Position numbers and translations under genes: made by a program. From a virus (lineage: Duplodnaviria; Caudoviricetes): 64,000 nucleotides of DNA. A model generated the notes under the pieces. That model was not told the DNA's origin. It worked only from the letters and a program-made list of their open reading frames with translations, and ran no database searches. Location: the IMG/VR virus record IMGVR_UViG_3300023055_000005, one strand, 5' to 3'. Positions 28,130 through 45,818 of this stretch are shown piece after piece. Every line of letters starts with the position of its first letter. The first letter of the stretch is position 1.

Positions 28130-28897
28130 ATGGCTTACGGAAACAACAACCAGAGCAACCAGCCGAAGGTGGCGCCGAACATCCTGAACGACTGGGATCT
28201 TCGCATGATCGGCGACCCGCAGCAGGGTGCCAAGAAGCCGCCGGCTCTGAACTGGCGTCTGAGCAACACCAAGTCCGGCACCAAGGCCGTCATGCAGGTC
28301 CGCACCAATGTACCCGGTGCCAAGGACGACGGCCTGATCTCGGCGCAGTTCAACACCCGTGACTTCTTCGGCGGTTTCCTGGGCATGTTCAAGCGCCTGG
28401 AGAAGCTGGAAGCCGGCAAGCAGCTGGTGATGGGCAACAACCGCTTCTTCAACGGCAAGCAGAACACCGTCTCCAAGACCATCCTGGGCAAGGAAGCGGA
28501 CGGCGCCTGCTACATCGGCCTGGTGGCCCGTGATCAGGCCAACGTGAAGTTCTACTTCGGCCCGAGCGAGAACCACTTCCTGACCTACGCCGACGGCACT
28601 CCGCTGTCGAAGGAAGAAGTCAGCCTGATGTACGCCGGCCAGTACGCCGAAATGCTGCTGCACTTCCTGGGCAACCTGCTGACCTCGGCCTACGTTCCGC
28701 CGCCGCCGCGTGATGGTGGCTTCCAGGGCGGTGGCGGTGGCGGTGGTGGTTACGGCGGTGGCAACCGCGGTGGCCAGGGTGGCGGTGGTGGTGGCGGCTA
28801 CGGTGGTGGCGGTGGGGCTGGCTTCCAGTCCAACGGCGGCTCCGGTGGTGGCTTCGACGCAGGCTTCGGTGGCGACGACCTGCCGGAAAACTTCTAA
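28130..28897 (+). CDS. chmC: ChmC-like nucleus-associated RNA-binding protein with Gly-rich tail
   Basis: Directly upstream of the gp68-like and PicA genes. About 190-aa beta-rich core, PPPP linker, GGG/RGG disordered tail ending FGGDDLPENF. Strong codon bias. Confidence 0.75.
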   Translation: MAYGNNNQSNQPKVAPNILNDWDLRMIGDPQQGAKKPPALNWRLSNTKSGTKAVMQVRTNVPGAKDDGLISAQFNTRDFFGGFLGMFKRLEKLEAGKQLVMGNNRFFNGKQNTVSKTILGKEADGACYIGLVARDQANVKFYFGPSENHFLTYADGTPLSKEEVSLMYAGQYAEMLLHFLGNLLTSAYVPPPPRDGGFQGGGGGGGGYGGGNRGGQGGGGGGGYGGGGGAGFQSNGGSGGGFDAGFGGDDLPENF

Positions 28898-28927
28898 GCG
28901 GCCGGATGCCGTAGACATACCGACATA

Positions 28928-28957
28928 TGGACACGGGAGCATCTGCTCCCGTGTCCA
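28928..28957 (+). terminator. Hairpin after chmC
   Basis: Perfect 13-bp stem TGGACACGGGAGC-atct-GCTCCCGTGTCCA. Confidence 0.75.
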
Positions 28958-28975
28958 GTCTACCCCTGTCAACTG

Positions 28976-28999
28976 AAAAAAAGTTCAGCCATACATTAC
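28976..28999 (+). promoter_or_regulatory. Early-type promoter candidate upstream of the gp68-like gene
   Basis: AAAAAAAGTTCAGCCATACATTAC with core TACATTAC. Confidence 0.55.
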
Positions 29000-29036
29000 C
29001 CATATGGCGCCCTACAAATAAGACAGGAACGCAGCA

Positions 29037-30578
29037 ATGAAAATTGAAATCTCCAGAGAGTCGGGAAGTGGTGGCGTGATCGAGGTTACTCTCAGTCACG
29101 GCAACTACGAGCCGACCACCTGGAACACGAGCATGCACGACCGGACCAAGATCAAGGACCGACCGGCACTGTTCAAACATCTCAACGCGTACTGGGCACA
29201 TTTGCCCGAAGAAAAGCAGGAACAGATCTGGCACATCTACGAGACCATGCGGATGACCTTCGCCAAGGTCTTCGACGACAGCCTGCTGCCCCTGCTGCTG
29301 AAACAGATCCGCGAGCTGTTCGACGTCATGACTCCGGAAGATCTCTCCAAGTGGATGAGTCTGCGAGGCAACGCTGGTATCCCCAGTGCCATCTCCGACG
29401 CCTACACCGAGGAAGGTCGCTATGGGAGCATCAAGCGCTTCCATGACCGGACCTGCCTGCGTCCTGACTACCGCAACTTCATCTACACCGCTTTGGCATT
29501 GCGTTCGCTGATGCCGGTGTTCGGTGAATACATCTCCCGTACCGAGAAGATCAATGGCGCGGTCTTCAAGGAGATGATGGCACTGCCGCTGATCAGCGGA
29601 AGCCAGTTGTGGGACATGCCGGGCGTGCAGTGGTTGATCAAGTACGTCGATGCAACGCTGGAGCAGGAGAAGCCTTCTGACTCGGCAATCATCGGCGGTA
29701 TCGGTCCATCGGAACGACCGGACTGGCTGCTGGCCAAGATCTTGATCCGTCGCCTCACCACCGAAGAGTTCCCGGTGAATGGCGATGACAACAACATCAT
29801 GATCAACATCTACCACGTCGTACGCAACTCGTTGAAGAACGAGCACAAGAGCTTGATGGGTCCGATCACCAGCAAGTTCCGCAACGACAGCGACATGGGC
29901 GATGATCAAGAGCGCATCTCCCGGTACGAGCAGTACAAGGAACGCACTAATCTCTCCCAAGGTGACATGGCGCCCAATCGCATCTGGATCGAAGACTACG
30001 TCGCAGCCGCTCAGCGACTGGACCCGACGATCGACCAGGCGATGGTGGAGACCTGCGTCAGCTACGCACGCAAGCAGGATATCACGGTGATCTCCGAGCA
30101 CACCATGGTCCTGATCAAGTACGTGCTGGATCCGGCCGTATCCTCCAAGAGCATTGATCCGCTCTTGCTGCCCACTACTCTGGTAGCGGCAGGCGTTACC
30201 CAAGCACTGCTGTGGCATTGGGGCTTCTTCGATCTGGCCGGCATCGTTACCGCCCGTCGTTTCGAGGTTCCCGAAGATGCAATGGCTTCTGGTCCTGAGC
30301 AACGTAACCGAGTCCCCAAGGACTTGGCCGAGGACTTGACTCGACTGTATCCCCACTATGTAACCCCGAAGGGTGGGCGACCGCAGACCGAGCGAAAGAA
30401 GAACATGGCATACATCGCCATCGATCTCATGGCAAACCTGATGTTCGGCGCAGAATGGACTCTGACCTGTCCGCCGGCGTTGGCCAAACAGACCAACCGT
30501 ATCACCAATGACAGGATGGTCGCACCAGCGGACCTGAGAGAACAGCTGGCAAGACTCATCATCGAACGTATCGCGTAA
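29037..30578 (+). CDS. Non-virion RNAP promoter-specificity subunit (phiKZ gp68-like)
   Basis: 513 aa. LFKHLNAYW, TCLRPDY..FI..ALALR...PVFGEYI and S.GD motifs. Position between chmC and picA. Confidence 0.8.
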   Translation: MKIEISRESGSGGVIEVTLSHGNYEPTTWNTSMHDRTKIKDRPALFKHLNAYWAHLPEEKQEQIWHIYETMRMTFAKVFDDSLLPLLLKQIRELFDVMTPEDLSKWMSLRGNAGIPSAISDAYTEEGRYGSIKRFHDRTCLRPDYRNFIYTALALRSLMPVFGEYISRTEKINGAVFKEMMALPLISGSQLWDMPGVQWLIKYVDATLEQEKPSDSAIIGGIGPSERPDWLLAKILIRRLTTEEFPVNGDDNNIMINIYHVVRNSLKNEHKSLMGPITSKFRNDSDMGDDQERISRYEQYKERTNLSQGDMAPNRIWIEDYVAAAQRLDPTIDQAMVETCVSYARKQDITVISEHTMVLIKYVLDPAVSSKSIDPLLLPTTLVAAGVTQALLWHWGFFDLAGIVTARRFEVPEDAMASGPEQRNRVPKDLAEDLTRLYPHYVTPKGGRPQTERKKNMAYIAIDLMANLMFGAEWTLTCPPALAKQTNRITNDRMVAPADLREQLARLIIERIA

Positions 30579-30596
30579 CGGAGTAAAGACAAGAGC

Positions 30597-32177
30597 ATGG
30601 CACGCAAAACTCGCATCATCCAACTTCTGTTCCGGGAGACTGGAACCTACCAGACGATGCAGGCACGTCCCTACGTCGCCGAGATTGACGGACACGACCT
30701 GATCAGTTTCGCTGAACGCACCGATGACGGTTCGAACTTCAGCCGCGAAGCATTGGCCGGACTGGCTGGTAGCATCCTCTCACCGCAGGCCCACAGCGCT
30801 GGCGAAGTTGACATCGCCGGTGGTTACGGCAACAAGCGCTACCGCTTCATCATGGAAGTCAGCCATGAAGATCGCTTCGGCGGTGGACACCGTCAGGTGT
30901 TCTCGGGTTACACCGACTACATGGGTGCCGACTCCCGCACCCGCCGTGGCGATCAGGTTTCCATCGACCGGAACATGAAGCTGTACCTCAACAGCGTCAT
31001 GACCATCCGCGACGTGGTGGACCACAGCAGCAATCGTCGCGACACCATGTCCACGGTGTTCGAGAACTCCCACATCCTGTCGGGCCTTTACAAGCCGAGC
31101 CTGCGACAGGACGAAGGTTCCATGGACGTGCGCATGCGGCCGGAAGACGTCTTCGCTTCGATGACGTTCAGTTCGTTCAAGTCCTCCCGCCGTTCCACCA
31201 ACGACGTGGTGCACGACACGCGAACCTCCTTCGCCGACGGCATCTGCAAGTCGCGCCGTTCCAACTCGACCGCTGCCAACTACCTGAGTGACCTGTTGAC
31301 CACCTACAGTCGCACGACGGACAACATGCAGTACGAGAACACCGATCGTTACAAGAAGCTGGAATCGGCTCGCGGCGCCATCGCCGAGAACTACATCACG
31401 GATGACCTGTTCCTGGGTCCGCTGTACCGTGAGACCAGCCTGAAGACCGGCAACTGGATCACCTTCCAGGAACTGATCGACATCGATCCGGACGTGGAGC
31501 GCGATGAAGTCACCCAGGTTCACCACAGCAAGGTGATCCATCGTGACAGCACCCGCCTGCGTGATCGCAACGACGACCAGGATGACTGGGCCGACGTCAA
31601 CAACGAGACCGTGGCAGCAACCATGCTGTCGCACGCGGTCCCGGCGATCATGATGGACCTCACGCTGACCCAGGTGGCGTTCATTGCTACCAACCGTACC
31701 CGTGACAACCGTCCCGAAGTGCACCCGACCGGCGGCCGCATGTTCAGCAAGCATGTGGACAAGGTTCCCGAGAAGGTCATGAACGTCTTCCTGAACCGCC
31801 TGGAAGATGAAGTGCTGCGCGACATCTCCAACCGTGGTCGTATCGACTACGACATGGAAGTGCGCGTGAACGTGTTCGGCGACTCGATCATCAAGATCTC
31901 CCTGCTGGGCGGTCGACATCACGAGTTCGTTGTACCGTCCTTCAGCGATGCCGGCTTCGTGCCGGTGCTGGCCCGTAGCAGCAGTGCTCTGGCCAGCCTC
32001 GCCCAGGAACTGACGGAGCTTACCTCCACCGTCGATGCCAATGCAGCGGCACGTAACAACTTCAGGTCGAACTTCATGGGCACCCGTGATGACGACACCA
32101 TCGACGATCGACCCACCAATAGCGGCCGTAGCCGCTGGACCGAGAATGACCGCAATGACGCTGATTCCGTTCTATAG
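30597..32177 (+). CDS. picA: PicA/Imp1 nuclear protein-import factor (phiKZ gp69-like)
   Basis: N-terminal I.QLLF.ETGTYQ.M..RPY, GGY...RYRF.MEV, MRPEDVF and KSRRSN.....YLS. Located immediately after the gp68-like gene. Confidence 0.82.
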   Translation: MARKTRIIQLLFRETGTYQTMQARPYVAEIDGHDLISFAERTDDGSNFSREALAGLAGSILSPQAHSAGEVDIAGGYGNKRYRFIMEVSHEDRFGGGHRQVFSGYTDYMGADSRTRRGDQVSIDRNMKLYLNSVMTIRDVVDHSSNRRDTMSTVFENSHILSGLYKPSLRQDEGSMDVRMRPEDVFASMTFSSFKSSRRSTNDVVHDTRTSFADGICKSRRSNSTAANYLSDLLTTYSRTTDNMQYENTDRYKKLESARGAIAENYITDDLFLGPLYRETSLKTGNWITFQELIDIDPDVERDEVTQVHHSKVIHRDSTRLRDRNDDQDDWADVNNETVAATMLSHAVPAIMMDLTLTQVAFIATNRTRDNRPEVHPTGGRMFSKHVDKVPEKVMNVFLNRLEDEVLRDISNRGRIDYDMEVRVNVFGDSIIKISLLGGRHHEFVVPSFSDAGFVPVLARSSSALASLAQELTELTSTVDANAAARNNFRSNFMGTRDDDTIDDRPTNSGRSRWTENDRNDADSVL

Positions 32178-41668: not shown

Positions 41669-41709
41669 GCGGACATACTCCCCCTCCCGGTTGGGAGGGG
41701 GAGCTATGC

Positions 41710-42171
41710 CTATCTCTTTTTCTTTGTCCCGATTACGATATCGGTTTCGAAGGGTAACGGATCAAGGTAGTGATACATCAAAGGACGGATCATGTCCTCG
41801 TAGTTCAAGTGCCCATTACCGCAACCCAAGGGGACCATGGCCATGTCACTGATCCCCATCTGTTCATGCTTGTCTCTCAAGCGGATCAAGTTAGCCTCGA
41901 TCCAGTCGTAGCGTGACGGGCTACCCCACCATTGCTTGGTGGGAAAGAGCAAGACTTGTCGACCTTCCCCGAAGGGATACAGATACATCTTGTCAATGGA
42001 CAAGGCCTTAGCCTTGAACAACTTCATGTAGAACTCGTAGAGACCTGGGATAGACTCACGCAGACTCAGCGCAACTCCAGCCCCCATAGCACCTGTGGTA
42101 TTGATGGTACACACGAGCGTTTGACGCGGGGACGCCGAAACGTCCCCTACCAGTTCCTGTACGATCGGCAT
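41710..42171 (-). CDS. Macrodomain ADP-ribosylhydrolase (DarG/Poa1-like)
   Basis: GDV, NTTGAMGAGVA, LFPTK.WW..PS and PLGCGNG.L macrodomain motifs. Confidence 0.88.
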   Translation of the reverse strand: MPIVQELVGDVSASPRQTLVCTINTTGAMGAGVALSLRESIPGLYEFYMKLFKAKALSIDKMYLYPFGEGRQVLLFPTKQWWGSPSRYDWIEANLIRLRDKHEQMGISDMAMVPLGCGNGHLNYEDMIRPLMYHYLDPLPFETDIVIGTKKKR

Positions 42172-42704
42172 TATCGACCACTCTTCCCGTCGGTGGCTTC
42201 ACGTGCTGCAGCTTCGGCAGCAGCCTGCAGCTTAGCTTGTCGCTCCAACCAATCCGCGTTGCTCTTGAACATGATCTCCGTTTCCCGCCGACTGAGTAAG
42301 ACGAACTCGCTCCACGACACCCCATACCGGTCCTTGATCCCGTTGATCATGTACCGATACATCTTGTGCTCAAGCGGGCCGTAAGACCCGTATTGCTCTT
42401 TGGGGTGCATGGCAACAGCAGCCATGGGGCGAAGATCTACATCCCCCGTCTCTTCAGTGTAGCGAGAGTCGTGGTAGAAGATCCCGTAGTAGTCGTCGTA
42501 CTCCTCCATGCACATCAACTGCACTGACATGGAGTCAACTTCCGAACTGACCGTAGCCAGCAGGTTGTTGTGCGGACCTAGATCGTTGACCTTATCCAAC
42601 CCGAAACGATCAAAGACTACATGACCGTTCGGGTCTTCTTGTTCAAGGTCTACATCACAGAGGCGGAAATCGCCTTCGCTGTGCGCTGGCCGAGGAGCGT
42701 GAAA
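42171..42704 (-). CDS. -1 frame extension of the 42650-44356 gene (gpGT/T-like tail chaperone segment)
   Basis: Frame is stop-free from the T-TTT-TTC site (42707-42701) to TAA at 42171. No SD at the TTG 42599 start. C-terminal YGVSWSEFVLLSRRETEIMF resembles gpT/gpE' chaperone extensions. Confidence 0.65.
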   Translation of the reverse strand, partial: FHAPRPAHSEGDFRLCDVDLEQEDPNGHVVFDRFGLDKVNDLGPHNNLLATVSSEVDSMSVQLMCMEEYDDYYGIFYHDSRYTEETGDVDLRPMAAVAMHPKEQYGSYGPLEHKMYRYMINGIKDRYGVSWSEFVLLSRRETEIMFKSNADWLERQAKLQAAAEAAAREATDGKSGR

Positions 42705-44356
42705 AAAAGTCGTGTCACGTCGAGCGGCAGCAGGCGCGGATGCTTGGAGCCTTCCACGGTCTGCGGGGCGGAACAGACACGGCAGTTGTAGCGCGGGATC
42801 GCCACCATTGCCACGGTCACCGAGTCGATGAACTTCTGCACGCCTTCGGTGAAGCGCTCCACCACGTCCTGGCGGCTGGAGATTTCGCCGAGCAGTTCGA
42901 CGAACGATTCACGCACGTCATCCTGGTCATCTTCTTCCGGGTTGAAGGTGAGCACACCTGCAACTTCTTCTTCCTTGTTCTTGAAGATGATGCGCTTGAC
43001 CCAGTGGCTGTACTGACGAGCGGTGGCCATGCGGGACTGCGCCATGATGTACTGGTCGCGTTCCTGCCCTTCCAGGGCGGTGCCGAAGGCCGCGTCCACG
43101 CGCTCTTCGATGGAGTTGATCCATTCGAAGGAGGACTTCTCGTACAGCTCCACCGTGGGGACGGCGAACTCGACGTAGATGTCATCGCTGATGGCGCACA
43201 GCGCGGTTTCGGCGTAGGAGTGGCTGTTGACGTACTCGGTCAGCTCTGCGTCGTTGCTCTTCTGCGTACGACGGGCCATCAGCTTGCGCTGGCTCTGGCT
43301 CAGTGCACGACGGTCCACGAAGAGCAGGCGCGAGAGGTTCAGCACTTCTTCTTCGATGTGCTGGCACTGGCCGGTGTGGTTGGTGCACGGACGGGCCAGC
43401 GGGTAGCCGTTGGGGTTGTTGATCAGACCCAGCTGCAGCATGAGCAGCGGGATATCGGTGATCAGCATCTTCTGCTTGATCGATGCCGGGGAGATGTCCT
43501 TCAGCGTGCTGTCGTACATCTTGCTGATGGCGAAGTTCGTCACCGTCAGCTGATGGTAGACGTTGTTGGCCGAGAAGGCCAAGCCGCCGGAGACACGACC
43601 CAGGGAGATCTTGCTGTTGCCCAGCTGCTGTTCCAGTTCCAGCATCTCGCCTTCACCCGGCGCCTGCAGCGACACCCAGAAGCCGGAGTGCCACATCGGT
43701 GCCTGTGCCAGCGAACCCACGCCCAGACGCGCCTTCAGGCGGCTCTTGGCTTCTTCGCCGGAGACACGGCCGTTGGTGGTGGAGTTGCCGCCGGTGGCGA
43801 TCGGACGGCCGATGGCCAGCTCTTCGCCGTTGTGGTCAACAGTCTGCTGCCAGTCCGAGCCTTCGCGACTCAGGGCACGGCTGCCGTACTGACCGGTGGG
43901 CATCAGGCGCGAACCACGAGCAGCACCTTCCAGCCAGCGGATGATTTCCGGCGTCGGGGTGAGGTTGAGGTTGCCCATGCTTTCACCGACCGGAGCGAAC
44001 TCCTCGGCGGTCTGGTTCAGGGACCACAGGTGGAAGCCCTTCTCCATGTCCTGCGCTTCGGCTTCGGTGGCCAGCGGACGGGTGACCGGACGGGTGAGGG
44101 TCACGGTCTTGCTCGGCGGCACGGCTTCCGAGCGCTTGGGCTGAACGCGACGCGCGGCGTCGGCGGCGAGCACACGTTCCTGCTTGCCGATCGGGGTCTC
44201 GACATTGGTCGCCGGGTCTTCGACGGAAGGCGGGTCAGCCGGGGTACGATCATGGTTCACGAACGTGCGCGGGTCGTCAACCGGGATCGCTGCCGCCTCG
44301 ACGGGCGTTTCCACGGGTGGCTGGTCGTCGATGTTCTCGTTGGGATCCTGCGTCAC
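42650..44356 (-). CDS. Baseplate-hub/tail assembly chaperone-like protein (phiKZ gp77-like)
   Basis: P.WHSGFWV.L, ITDIP.L...L....P.GYP..RPC and a C-terminal CRVC Zn knuckle then LDVTRLFFTLL. Pro/acidic N-terminal extension. Confidence 0.72.
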   Translation of the reverse strand: MTQDPNENIDDQPPVETPVEAAAIPVDDPRTFVNHDRTPADPPSVEDPATNVETPIGKQERVLAADAARRVQPKRSEAVPPSKTVTLTRPVTRPLATEAEAQDMEKGFHLWSLNQTAEEFAPVGESMGNLNLTPTPEIIRWLEGAARGSRLMPTGQYGSRALSREGSDWQQTVDHNGEELAIGRPIATGGNSTTNGRVSGEEAKSRLKARLGVGSLAQAPMWHSGFWVSLQAPGEGEMLELEQQLGNSKISLGRVSGGLAFSANNVYHQLTVTNFAISKMYDSTLKDISPASIKQKMLITDIPLLMLQLGLINNPNGYPLARPCTNHTGQCQHIEEEVLNLSRLLFVDRRALSQSQRKLMARRTQKSNDAELTEYVNSHSYAETALCAISDDIYVEFAVPTVELYEKSSFEWINSIEERVDAAFGTALEGQERDQYIMAQSRMATARQYSHWVKRIIFKNKEEEVAGVLTFNPEEDDQDDVRESFVELLGEISSRQDVVERFTEGVQKFIDSVTVAMVAIPRYNCRVCSAPQTVEGSKHPRLLPLDVTRLFFTLLGQRTAKAISASVM

Positions 44357-44892
44357 TGCTCGTTCTCCTGTTGCGGGGTTTCGGCTGCTTCGGTGGCCGC
44401 TGCACTGGCCTTCAGCTCGTCACGGGTTTCCTGGTCGTAGTAGCCCAGCGTGTGCACGATGTTGGGCATCACGATGCGCGTGTGGCGACCTTGCCAGTCG
44501 GCGTACTTCTCGCCGATGTCGATGACCTGGATGGTTTCGTCACCGGTCATGCGCGGACGGCTGGTGGCACGCACGCGCTTGGTGACGGTGTTGCTGAACT
44601 CCACGTGTTCCTTGCGGATCGAGTCCAGCTCGTTGCGGAAGGTGCGGCTGTCCTGGCTGACGACCTGAGCCACCTTGACCAGAGCGGGGCGATCTTCGAC
44701 CGGCACCTGACGCAGGGCGTCCTTGTTGCGCAGGATCTGCGAGATCGGCAACACCTGTGCCAGCTGTTCTTCGCAGCCGGAGTAGACTTCATCCAGCTCG
44801 CGCAGGGACTGTGCAGTCACGTCACGATCACGGCCAGCCTTGTAGGGGCGACGGGCGCCAGTGTTCTTGCGGTTCTTGTTGCTTACGGGCAT
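44353..44892 (-). CDS. Conserved hypothetical helical protein
   Basis: ATG 44892 with GGAG SD and basic N-terminus. GTGA/ATGA coupling to the next gene. Confidence 0.72.
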   Translation of the reverse strand: MPVSNKNRKNTGARRPYKAGRDRDVTAQSLRELDEVYSGCEEQLAQVLPISQILRNKDALRQVPVEDRPALVKVAQVVSQDSRTFRNELDSIRKEHVEFSNTVTKRVRATSRPRMTGDETIQVIDIGEKYADWQGRHTRIVMPNIVHTLGYYDQETRDELKASAAATEAAETPQQENEQ

Positions 44893-44990
44893 GTCTTTAT
44901 CCACTCCGGGGATATGTATGTCAAAAACGAATTGCAGCCTTTTCATATAAAGGCTGGTGTGTGTACTATTTAACCGAAAAGGAGATTTGC

Positions 44991-45818
44991 ATGTCTGGTC
45001 TACTGACTGGCATTGCTCAGCTGGGTTGCTCCCCTGAGCGGGTGTTGTTGCTGGAACGCGTCCAAGACGTGCTGGCTGCTGTGGGCTTCACGGATATCGA
45101 AACTGAAGTGGAGAATGTCTACTTCAGCGGACAGGAAGTGGAGACGCATGTGTTGATCGAACTGATCGACAATCTCTTCCACGGTTACCTCGACAGTTCC
45201 ATCAAACAGCAGGGCGTGTTCACTCGCGACGACGCCAGCATGGAACAGAAGGTGATCCTGCTGGAAGACCTGCAACGCTTCGCCAACTTCGACAGCCCGC
45301 AGTTCTTCATCGAGCAGATGGACCTGGACGCCTCCGATACCGAGCGCCTGTGCGCTGGTCTGGATATCGTTGGCCAGTGGACTGCAGACCAGTATCTGGA
45401 GTTCATCGTCCACGTCAACAAGGGCTTGATCGATCGCATCCGTTCGTTCACCTCCGAAGTGGTCTCCACCGAGTCCGACGACAGTGCTGAGCTTGCTCGC
45501 GGTCGTCTGCGTATCCGTGGGTTCACCGAGACCTTCGGTAGCAACATGGTCGCAGAGCTGATCCGTGAGGGCTACAGCTGCGGTAACGACTACACCCTGT
45601 ACTTGCACCAGCTGCGCGAACTGCTGCCTCAGCTGAGCGATCAGGATCTTTCCAAGAACATGGTGGCAGTAATGCTGGCCAGCTCCTTGCCGAAGGAACT
45701 GGTGCTCTCCACCGCGCTGGAAGAAATCGAACATCTTGATCTGCCGCTGTTGCGCGTGAGTGCAATCAACGGTCTGGTCGCAAAGACCTACGGGGATTTC
45801 ATCAATGCTCAAGCGTGA
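44991..45818 (+). CDS. Conserved protein upstream of vRNAP beta' (gp79-like)
   Basis: AAAGGAG SD, ATG 44991, overlapping the RNAP start. Confidence 0.75.
   Translation: MSGLLTGIAQLGCSPERVLLLERVQDVLAAVGFTDIETEVENVYFSGQEVETHVLIELIDNLFHGYLDSSIKQQGVFTRDDASMEQKVILLEDLQRFANFDSPQFFIEQMDLDASDTERLCAGLDIVGQWTADQYLEFIVHVNKGLIDRIRSFTSEVVSTESDDSAELARGRLRIRGFTETFGSNMVAELIREGYSCGNDYTLYLHQLRELLPQLSDQDLSKNMVAVMLASSLPKELVLSTALEEIEHLDLPLLRVSAINGLVAKTYGDFINAQA

Follow-up and report, generated by a model that had tools for sequence, protein, structure and literature searches.

The window described here is a stretch of 64,000 nucleotides (nt) of viral DNA (Duplodnaviria; Caudoviricetes; IMG/VR record IMGVR_UViG_3300023055_000005) from a soil phage, the genome of which is about 234 kb long and 87% identical in DNA sequence to that of Xanthomonas phage Xoo-sp14. 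On its minus strand, an open reading frame (ORF) of 568 amino acids (aa), 44356..42650, which encodes a homolog of phiKZ gp77, 201phi2-1 gp136, and PhiPA3 gp074, is followed by an ORF of 142 aa, 42599..42171, listed from a TTG codon. These two ORFs are very likely also expressed as a single fusion protein, by one or another form of slippage on a run of T residues near the end of the first ORF, and it is likely that the slip is made by the ribosome, as a −1 frameshift. On balance, the comparison of this locus across the Chimalliviridae favours a wider reading, that of a family-wide, unannotated recoding event in a gene common among nucleus-forming jumbo phages, in which a −1 slip on a bare stretch of U residues, without a classical stimulator, would yield two forms of a giant relative of the T4 proteins gp26 and gp51. 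The parts of the locus on which the argument turns are as follows.

42650..44356, minus strand: zero-frame gene; short product of 568 aa, ending in DVTRLFFTLLGQRTAKAISASVM before the stop codon (from the ORF list, homologs, and synteny)
42701..42708, minus strand: candidate slip site; T7 run at 42708-42702 and in-phase heptamer T TTT TTC at 42707-42701, at the invariant Phe-Phe pair (FF; F551-F552)
42650..42700, minus strand: predicted dual-coding overlap; in the zero frame the tail of the short form, TLLGQRTAKAISASVM and stop, and in the −1 frame the start of the extension
42600..42649, minus strand: linker, formerly "intergenic", here read in the −1 frame, with the motif G-H-[VI]-x4-F-G
42171..42701, minus strand: predicted −1 frame extension of 176 codons and a stop; first new codon CAC at 42701-42699

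A T Run at the End of the gp77-like Gene

An earlier note, made by a model from the letters of the window, had proposed a canonical in-phase heptamer at 42707-42701, and this is borne out by the codon layout: CTT TTT TTC occupies 42709-42701 of the minus strand, and T TTT TTC thus forms a zero-frame X XXY YYZ heptamer. The note had also seen an open −1 frame continuous with the 42171-42599 ORF. Indeed, this frame runs without stops from 42908 to the TAA at 42173-42171; it reads FFHAPRPAHSEGDFRLCDVDLE and onwards and joins the 142-aa ORF, while the zero frame ends at the stop codon at 42652-42650. The predicted fusion comprises 552 + 176 = 728 aa, the size that the note had estimated, with the last 16 residues of the short form exchanged for a 176-aa extension. 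The junction peptide predicted for the fusion of the window phage is LFFHAPRPAHSEGDFR.

Four assemblies of the window phage carry a run of seven T residues (T7) at this place; one comes from a DNA library and three from soil libraries labelled RNA, and they may have samples or studies in common with the source of the window. Such runs are scarce in the window, with 10 matches, counted over both strands and falling at 6 sites, versus 2.6 expected. A second T7 run within an ORF, at 28976-28982 (minus strand), was considered and rejected: the ORF in question, 30695..28620, is of low complexity, and its −1 frame is shut after three codons. This minus-strand ORF, the only other long one with a T7 run, looks like the shadow of a plus-strand gene and is probably spurious.

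The Same Site in Related Phages

The locus was compared in 35 instances, namely the window, 25 phages from across the Chimalliviridae, one IMG/VR contig, and eight metagenomic contigs obtained from protein searches. The phages were phiKZ/KTN4, 201phi2-1, PhiPA3, Noxifer, Eowyn, LucasX, RTH11, FLC9, RsoM3USA, RSF1, RP31, Haymo, Centimanus, PCH45, SPLA10, SPN3US, Machina, EarlPhillipIV, Ea35-70, pEa48, pEa54, pVa-21, Yong XC31, JM-2012, and Xoo-sp14. The identity of their gp77-like proteins to that of the window falls as low as about 21% (tblastn). Despite this range, a run of five to eight T residues (T5-T8) lies at the same nearly invariant FF of the C-terminal motif D....FFTL in 34 of the 35 loci; in these 34, the downstream ORF occupies the −1 frame, which can be traced upstream beyond the run without meeting a stop codon. 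The run itself is found at the homologous position in every one of the 35. A conserved T run with an open −1 frame is what the earlier note had expected of such an alignment of gp77-like pairs, and 34 of the 35 loci fit. Moreover, a canonical in-phase heptamer is present in 28 of the 33 loci that were scored.

The relation between the two frames is more constant than the distance between the two genes. In the 25 phage-collection records, the gap lies anywhere between −4 and +218 nt, yet the frame relation stays −1, which means that it has been kept through many insertions and deletions. In many loci, the −1 frame opens just 1-5 codons ahead of the run, as would be expected if the run were the point of entry into that frame. 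When stop codons were counted from the run onwards, as far as the annotated start or over 55 codons, none was found in 1717 codons of the −1 frame, as against 7.1% per codon in the gene body and 99 stops in 1706 codons of the +1 frame over the same stretch; since the sampled loci are phylogenetically related, these counts are non-independent trials. The alignments show that the site, the frame relation, and the apparent coding character of the linker are conserved across the sampled Chimalliviridae.

The sole exception is RTH11 (Xanthomonas phage; locus L003, OQ790161.1, 3819-3825), which has T7 where its sister LucasX has T8. With this run length, no two of the three parts of the RTH11 locus (the frame upstream, the conserved tail FFTLLGQR, and the extension) share a reading frame, and the annotation gives an odd ORF of 627 aa. 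This three-frame split is most simply explained by a homopolymer miscall, and the T7 of RTH11 is probably either such a miscall or else a real length variant of the run.

The case of RTH11 raises the question of whether the split elsewhere might also be an artefact, or a decayed gene, in which a homopolymer miscall or a recent frameshift mutation had broken one long ORF. Homopolymer errors do occur, as RTH11 itself, with its T7 versus the T8 of LucasX and its odd annotation, would illustrate. However, the same split is present in 34 of 35 loci sequenced by different laboratories, on different platforms, and from different metagenomes; the four assemblies of the window phage agree on T7; and the zero-frame tail after the run, FFTL..Q(R/K) or FFTLxGQR, is itself conserved. 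The gp77 family numbers 220 phage records and 1287 metagenomic cluster representatives, and among the 150 best of these 1287 representatives (lengths 305-645 aa), there is no in-frame fusion. This explanation is, in effect, refuted. The lack of in-frame fusions suggests that the frame break is maintained, as would be expected if both forms were needed, and, taken with the conserved zero-frame tail, that the short and the long readings are both maintained.

Selection on the Run Itself

Conservation of the run could simply reflect conservation of the two phenylalanines. Several observations point beyond this. In the window, the gene has a single TTT codon, at the slip site, and its other 15 Phe codons are TTC; over the whole window, Phe is encoded by TTT 68 times versus TTC 543 times. 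TTT is likewise missing from the rest of the gene (TTT frequency, fTTT, 0.00) in Xoo-sp14 and in loci L027-L030 (locus L010 is the same as L028). Another case is that of L035, a metagenomic contig (SRR28006986, 2730-2735), in which Phe-Ser replaces Phe-Phe and a T6 run is kept, with a −1 frame that opens two codons before the run. This observation suggests that the nucleotide run outlives the amino-acid motif. The T run thus appears to be selected as nucleotides, beyond its role in coding for Phe-Phe.

The Downstream Domain, Its Starts, and the Linker

When the −1 products are aligned from the run to the downstream stop, they form one homologous domain in all phages, with the motifs GH[VI]x4FG, [EA]YDxxYGI, HPxE, and FGxSxxEFxxxPR. 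The annotated starts are scattered over this alignment, and several fall within or past conserved motifs. PHIKZ076.4 (80 aa; phiKZ/KTN4) and the corresponding ORF of pEa_SNUABM_54 are annotated to begin past the YD..GI motif, and the downstream ORF of Ea35-70 is annotated with a CTG start. In phiKZ and Ea35-70, the stretch that separates the run from the conserved YD..GI motif contains no ATG, GTG, or TTG. In many phages, moreover, the GH..FG motif lies upstream of the annotated start and of any usable start codon. As to the window, the earlier note had described the TTG start of the 142-aa ORF as lacking a Shine-Dalgarno (SD) sequence, and the calculated duplex energy of +0.6 kcal/mol agrees with this. 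The other possible start in the window is the following.

42528..42530, minus strand: internal ATG (MSVQLMC...) with a weak SD; its 119-aa product would lack the GH..FG part

It corresponds to the annotated start in Xoo-sp14. The SD duplex energies of the ATG before the YD motif are −4.1 in the window (42530), −7.2 in Xoo-sp14, and −10.7 in L027.

Between the gp77 stop and the YD motif, related pairs differ at 200, 140, and 317 sites at −1 frame codon positions 1, 2, and 3, respectively, from which the linker appears to evolve as −1 frame coding sequence. The dual-coded overlap varies less than any other stretch of the locus: in four close relatives, 1 of its 45 columns (42694-42650) differs, as compared with 2 of 45 columns in 42739-42695.

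These observations bear on the most conventional explanation, which is that the locus holds two ordinary genes, the downstream ORF being started on its own (at TTG 42599, at ATG 42530, or by a non-canonical start or reinitiation), and that the T run just encodes FF. Every database record does annotate two genes, the FF is conserved at the protein level, and the ATG before the YD motif has a fair SD in some relatives, as the values for Xoo-sp14 and L027 indicate. However, the position of the start is not conserved, and in phiKZ and Ea35-70, there is nothing of the ATG/GTG/TTG kind ahead of the conserved motif with which to start, so that in Ea35-70, the annotation needed a CTG. The possible starts come after the GH..FG motif and after the region that shows the codon-position pattern. 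Nor would two independent genes account for a −1 frame that opens just before the run and then stays free of stops, for a frame relation that is always −1 across a gap varying by more than 200 nt, for the use of the rare TTT codon only at the slip site, or for the retention of the run without FF in L035. Two ordinary genes are, therefore, decidedly unlikely to be the whole explanation.

The AlphaFold (AF2) model of the extension is poor, with a predicted local distance difference test (pLDDT) score of 54, and is confident solely in the C-terminal helices (extension residues ~110-178). Structure searches with the extension were uninformative: VIA returned generic helix-loop-helix and coiled-coil matches with Z up to 5.6, and the ESM Atlas returned nothing above noise. 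In T4, gene 25 follows gene 26, and homology of the extension to gp25 was, therefore, considered; it was rejected at an hhalign probability of 0.2%.

Ribosome or RNA Polymerase

The mechanism proposed for the gp77-like gene is as follows. Most ribosomes would stay in the zero frame until they terminate at 42652-42650, producing the 568-aa short form. Some would slip one base back on the U run, with tRNA-Phe at the UUU and UUC codons of F551-F552; this would be a tandem slip on U UUU UUC and, where the run is shorter, a P-site slip on U UUY. After the slip, the linker and the small ORF beyond it would be translated in the −1 frame, yielding the 728-aa long form. We infer the slip, its efficiency, and both products from the sequence.

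Another mechanism could give the same fusion. RNA polymerase, whether that of the phage or that of the host, might add one U on the T run, after which normal translation would suffice. Such transcriptional slippage would be consistent with the conservation of a pure homopolymer, which is T7-T8 in 27 of 33 loci, and with the fact that no stimulatory RNA structure is conserved; furthermore, these phages use non-canonical multisubunit RNA polymerases of their own, encoded beside the gp77-like gene. The comparative evidence as a whole fits this mechanism equally well. What distinguishes the two is the detail of the run. In 6 of 33 loci, it is only T5-T6, which is short for efficient polymerase slippage, judging from the known bacterial and insertion sequence (IS)-element cases, and in 28 of 33 loci, the run keeps the X XXY YYZ codon phase, which matters to a ribosome and not to a polymerase. 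The contigs from RNA libraries show T7, though an assembled contig would hide a minority of U8 transcripts. For these reasons, we regard slippage by the polymerase as unlikely, though worth keeping in mind, and a −1 ribosomal frameshift as the likely source of the fusion.

Several points weigh against a ribosomal frameshift, besides the non-independence of the counts already mentioned. Firstly, the evidence is all computational. Secondly, 5 of the 33 scored sites (T5/T6) are not canonical X XXY YYZ heptamers; at these five, the tRNA-Phe of the second codon could still pair anew with UUU after a shift to the −1 frame. Thirdly, in the window clade, ATG 42530, with its weak-to-fair SD, could also express the distal 119 aa alone. 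Fourthly, no conserved stimulatory RNA structure was found in single-sequence folds of the 75 nt downstream of the run in 30 loci (mean z −0.6, with 2 of 30 below −2), a scan that covered single-sequence structures rather than pseudoknots or nascent-peptide effects, and no obvious SD-like stimulator was found upstream. Since no stimulator was found, the efficiency of the slip may be low. Phage factors, such as the RNA polymerases of the phage or the ribosome-binding proteins that have been reported in phiKZ, might tune it.

The earlier note had also drawn attention to a hairpin, further downstream than typical stimulators:

42656..42683, minus strand: hairpin CACAG..AGGCG/CGCCT..CTGTG, 17 nt after the heptamer, probably no stimulator

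The hairpin does exist at this place and distance. As a stimulator, it is not supported: the local fold downstream of the heptamer in the window is no better than that of shuffles (z −1.44), the outer stem is broken without compensation in the close relative L028, and nothing comparable is conserved in the 30 loci that were folded.

The Zero-Frame Protein and Its Likely Role

Pfam and NCBIfam contain no family for either part of the fusion, and PHROGs contains families of unknown function only. Within the gp77 family, a Cys cluster (C324, C331, C525, and C528) is nearly invariant, as are C525, C528, F551, F552, and L554 toward the C-terminus, the two phenylalanines being those of the slip site.

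Structure is more informative. An AF2 model built from an 84-sequence alignment has a pLDDT of 86.9 and a predicted template modelling (pTM) score of 0.83. With this model, BFVD returned about ten viral proteins, most of them 226-284 aa long, at E values of 4e-4 to 1e-1 (template modelling (TM) score by target 0.38-0.53); their names are baseplate hub subunit, hub assembly protein, or hub assembly chaperone. In the ESM Atlas, a cluster that is 99% PF12322 was matched with a TM score of 0.61 by target over 240 aligned residues (root-mean-square deviation (rmsd) 4.5 A; query residues 200-558), and in AFDB, weaker rows bore the names 'Baseplate protein' and 'hub subunit'. PF12322 is the family of T4 gp26 and gp51, both of which are strong matches to it and are, therefore, paralogs, and the NCBI family is named 'gp26 family baseplate hub assembly chaperone'. 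In a review of the T4 tail, gp26 and gp51 are listed as hub assembly chaperones (PMC3004832, Table 2). The core of the gp77-type protein, residues ~200-558, is thus predicted to match the fold of the T4 gp26/gp51 hub-assembly chaperones, in a comparison in which the models are predicted on both sides.

The resemblance extends to the C-terminus. T4 gp26 (L031, 3803-4429, minus strand) ends in CPECGKTHAHVIRGLKEFFELL, that is, in a zinc ribbon followed by FFxLL, as does gp77, and the phenylalanines F204 and F205 hardly vary among gp26 homologs. An hhalign comparison of gp77 with the gp26/gp51 profile places the CPxCG zinc ribbon of gp26, and its FFxLL end, opposite their counterparts in gp77, the final 39 residues of T4 gp26 being those aligned to the gp77 C-terminus.

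This assignment has to be set against the weakness of the sequence matches and of those to solved structures. The hhalign alignment has a probability of 1.9% and an E of 0.025 and is confined to the C-terminal 54 columns. The PF12322 hidden Markov model gives no hit on the window protein, and of 84 family members, two reach E 0.014, below threshold. Among solved structures, Foldseek against the PDB found no match at E < 0.3, and the highest Z from VIA was 4.3.

The paper on the Goslar virion reports that the hub of Goslar and phiKZ closely resembles that of T4, so chaperones of the T4 hub type would have a job to do in these phages. With a predicted fold like that of gp26 and gp51, the most likely role of the protein is that of a non-virion assembly factor for a T4-like hub or tail, and hub-assembly chaperone is its probable function. 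The two forms, in a fixed ratio, would share the chaperone body, and the long form would carry an extra adaptor domain. The record of 201phi2-1 carries a mass-spectrometry note on the neighbours gp138 and gp139 and none on gp136 and gp135; this absence fits a non-structural assembly factor and proves nothing.

Some homologs of gp77 already carry related names: H106 (Erwinia phage pEa_SNUABM_43, MW384823.1) and BFVD entry A0A8S5P0M5 are annotated as 'putative baseplate hub assembly protein' or 'Baseplate protein'. Neither annotation mentions a frameshift.

It is also possible, although doubtful, that the frameshift is real and that a gp26/gp51-like fold has been reused elsewhere, for example, in a role linked to the neighbouring genes for the virion RNA polymerase (vRNAP), the head, and the helicase. 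The neighbourhood, which consists of vRNAP beta', head protein gp79, gp78, and a helicase, without tail genes, would be in keeping with this, as would the size of the protein, which is more than twice that of gp26 or gp51 and includes an extra N-terminal region of ~200 residues, and the similarity to PF12322 below threshold. Against such a reuse, independent structure libraries all point to the baseplate-hub family, the hub of these phages is T4-like, and no other fold match was found.

Gene Order and the Surroundings of the Locus

The gp77-like gene lies in a kept block of genes: vRNAP beta' (gp80), gp79, gp78, gp77, the small ORF, and, further on, helicase gp75. A homologous small ORF follows gp77 in all phages examined and belongs to phrog_12109; in phiKZ, it is PHIKZ076.4 and not gp76. 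No terminator-like site was found between the two ORFs on the coding strand. The next gene in the window is the following.

41710-42171, minus strand: macro-domain gene, 153 aa (Pfam Macro, E 1.3e-4; phrog_335, 'phosphatase')

The ATG of this gene overlaps the stop of the extension (TAATG), so its translation may be coupled to that of the long or downstream product. The macro gene is not at this position in Xoo-sp14, and it follows the small ORF in the metagenomic relatives L029, L030, and L034.

The stretch 41700-45000 is contained completely, as assembled contigs, in 21 soil runs labelled as RNA. The whole phage genome of ~234 kb also occurs unbroken in contigs of up to 234,185 bases, assembled from soil libraries that are labelled metatranscriptomic. 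Either the phage is very active in those soils or phage DNA is present in the libraries.

Novelty and Meaning

Full-text searches of the literature yielded no paper that ties phiKZ-like phages or gp77 homologs to frameshifting; the mentions of 'gp77' that were found refer to the numbering of other phages. A joined coding sequence (CDS) is present at the locus in none of the 25 phage-collection records fetched, all 25 of which annotate the downstream ORF on its own, in truncated form in the case of phiKZ. Word-indexed sequence searches recovered few relatives.

If the frameshift is real, the records of phiKZ/KTN4, Ea35-70, and pEa_SNUABM_54 would need a joined CDS, and this would be, as far as can be searched, the first recoding event described for the Chimalliviridae. 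It makes a concrete prediction, that of a long form of ~80 kDa with a defined junction peptide, and the likeness to T4 gp26/gp51 gives a lead, toward hub assembly, on the function of an uncharacterised and widely conserved gene. A conserved U-run site without an evident stimulator would also be a natural case useful for studies of the mechanism of frameshifting. Finally, a chaperone of the gp26/gp51 type made in two forms would bear on a long-standing question, namely what takes the place of G/GT in T4-like tails.

Comparison with Known Systems

The earlier note had described the pair as a tail chaperone of the G/GT type. In the systems of that type, lambda G/GT, P2 E/E+E', and Mu, tail assembly chaperones are reportedly made by a −1 programmed frameshift, in work attributed to Xu, Hendrix and Duda in 2004. 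The likeness of the gp77 locus to these systems lies in its anatomy. As in these systems, one mRNA would give rise to a short and a C-terminally extended form, by a −1 slip only a few codons ahead of the stop; the downstream ORF likewise lacks a reliable start of its own, and the arrangement is conserved where the sequence is not. This part of the description, two forms by a −1 slip near the 3' end, stands as a prediction, and so, through the gp26/gp51-like fold, does the idea of an assembly chaperone.

What does not stand is membership. The gp77-type protein has no sequence or family relation to G/GT; scans of Pfam, PHROG, and NCBIfam with both parts, together with 84 + 30 family members, gave no match to a tail-chaperone family. 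Its short form has 480-720 aa, versus about 100-150, which makes it 4-5 times larger than G or E. In the window and in its relatives, its neighbours are vRNAP beta', gp79, gp78, the macro-domain gene, and the helicase, and not genes for the tail tube or tape measure. The slip would occur on a U run read by tRNA-Phe rather than on G GGA AAG or similar. Solved tail chaperones (HK97 2ob9, YqbN 3klu, and 3fgx) align to the gp77 model at residues ~185-323 with Z 3.1-4.2 and rmsd 4.3-7.6 A, which is within the noise of the tool. The resemblance of the C-terminus to gpT/gpE', which the note had also suggested, was not upheld either: the GpE cluster of the Atlas appears at rank 97 with a score of 0.84, which is the noise level.

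The comparison with T4 is the reverse, in that the protein is alike and the means of making two forms is not. The gp77-type protein shares with gp26/gp51 the predicted fold of residues ~200-558 and a C-terminal Zn-ribbon of the form CPxCG...H...FFxLL, although the window protein is 2-3 times larger and does not reach the family thresholds in sequence similarity. Related forms exist in T4 as well, namely the paralogs gp26 and gp51, which arose by duplication, and the internal-start product 26'. In T4 gene 26, the FF is encoded by TTC TTT, there is neither a T run nor a frameshift, and gene 25 overlaps by TAATG. The gp26/gp51 family of T4 is not known to involve a frameshift.

A third system for comparison is the capsid frameshift of gene 10A/10B in phage T7, which Condron, Atkins and Gesteland are said to have described in 1991. 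That too is a −1 frameshift in a late phage gene at a U-rich site involving tRNA-Phe (G GUU UUC in T7), and it operates at low efficiency and without a classical adjacent pseudoknot. The T7 product differs from the gp77 case in being a capsid protein, with a short extension that has no separately annotated ORF.

Should the proposed frameshift and the likeness to gp26/gp51 both hold, the rule of a chaperone in two forms by −1 frameshift would be extended from the G/E type to an unrelated chaperone family, and T4-type hub chaperones would be the functional counterpart of lambda G/GT, the two-isoform logic having been reached independently. As modelled here, the gp77 locus would follow lambda G/GT in its logic, with proteins of an unrelated family.

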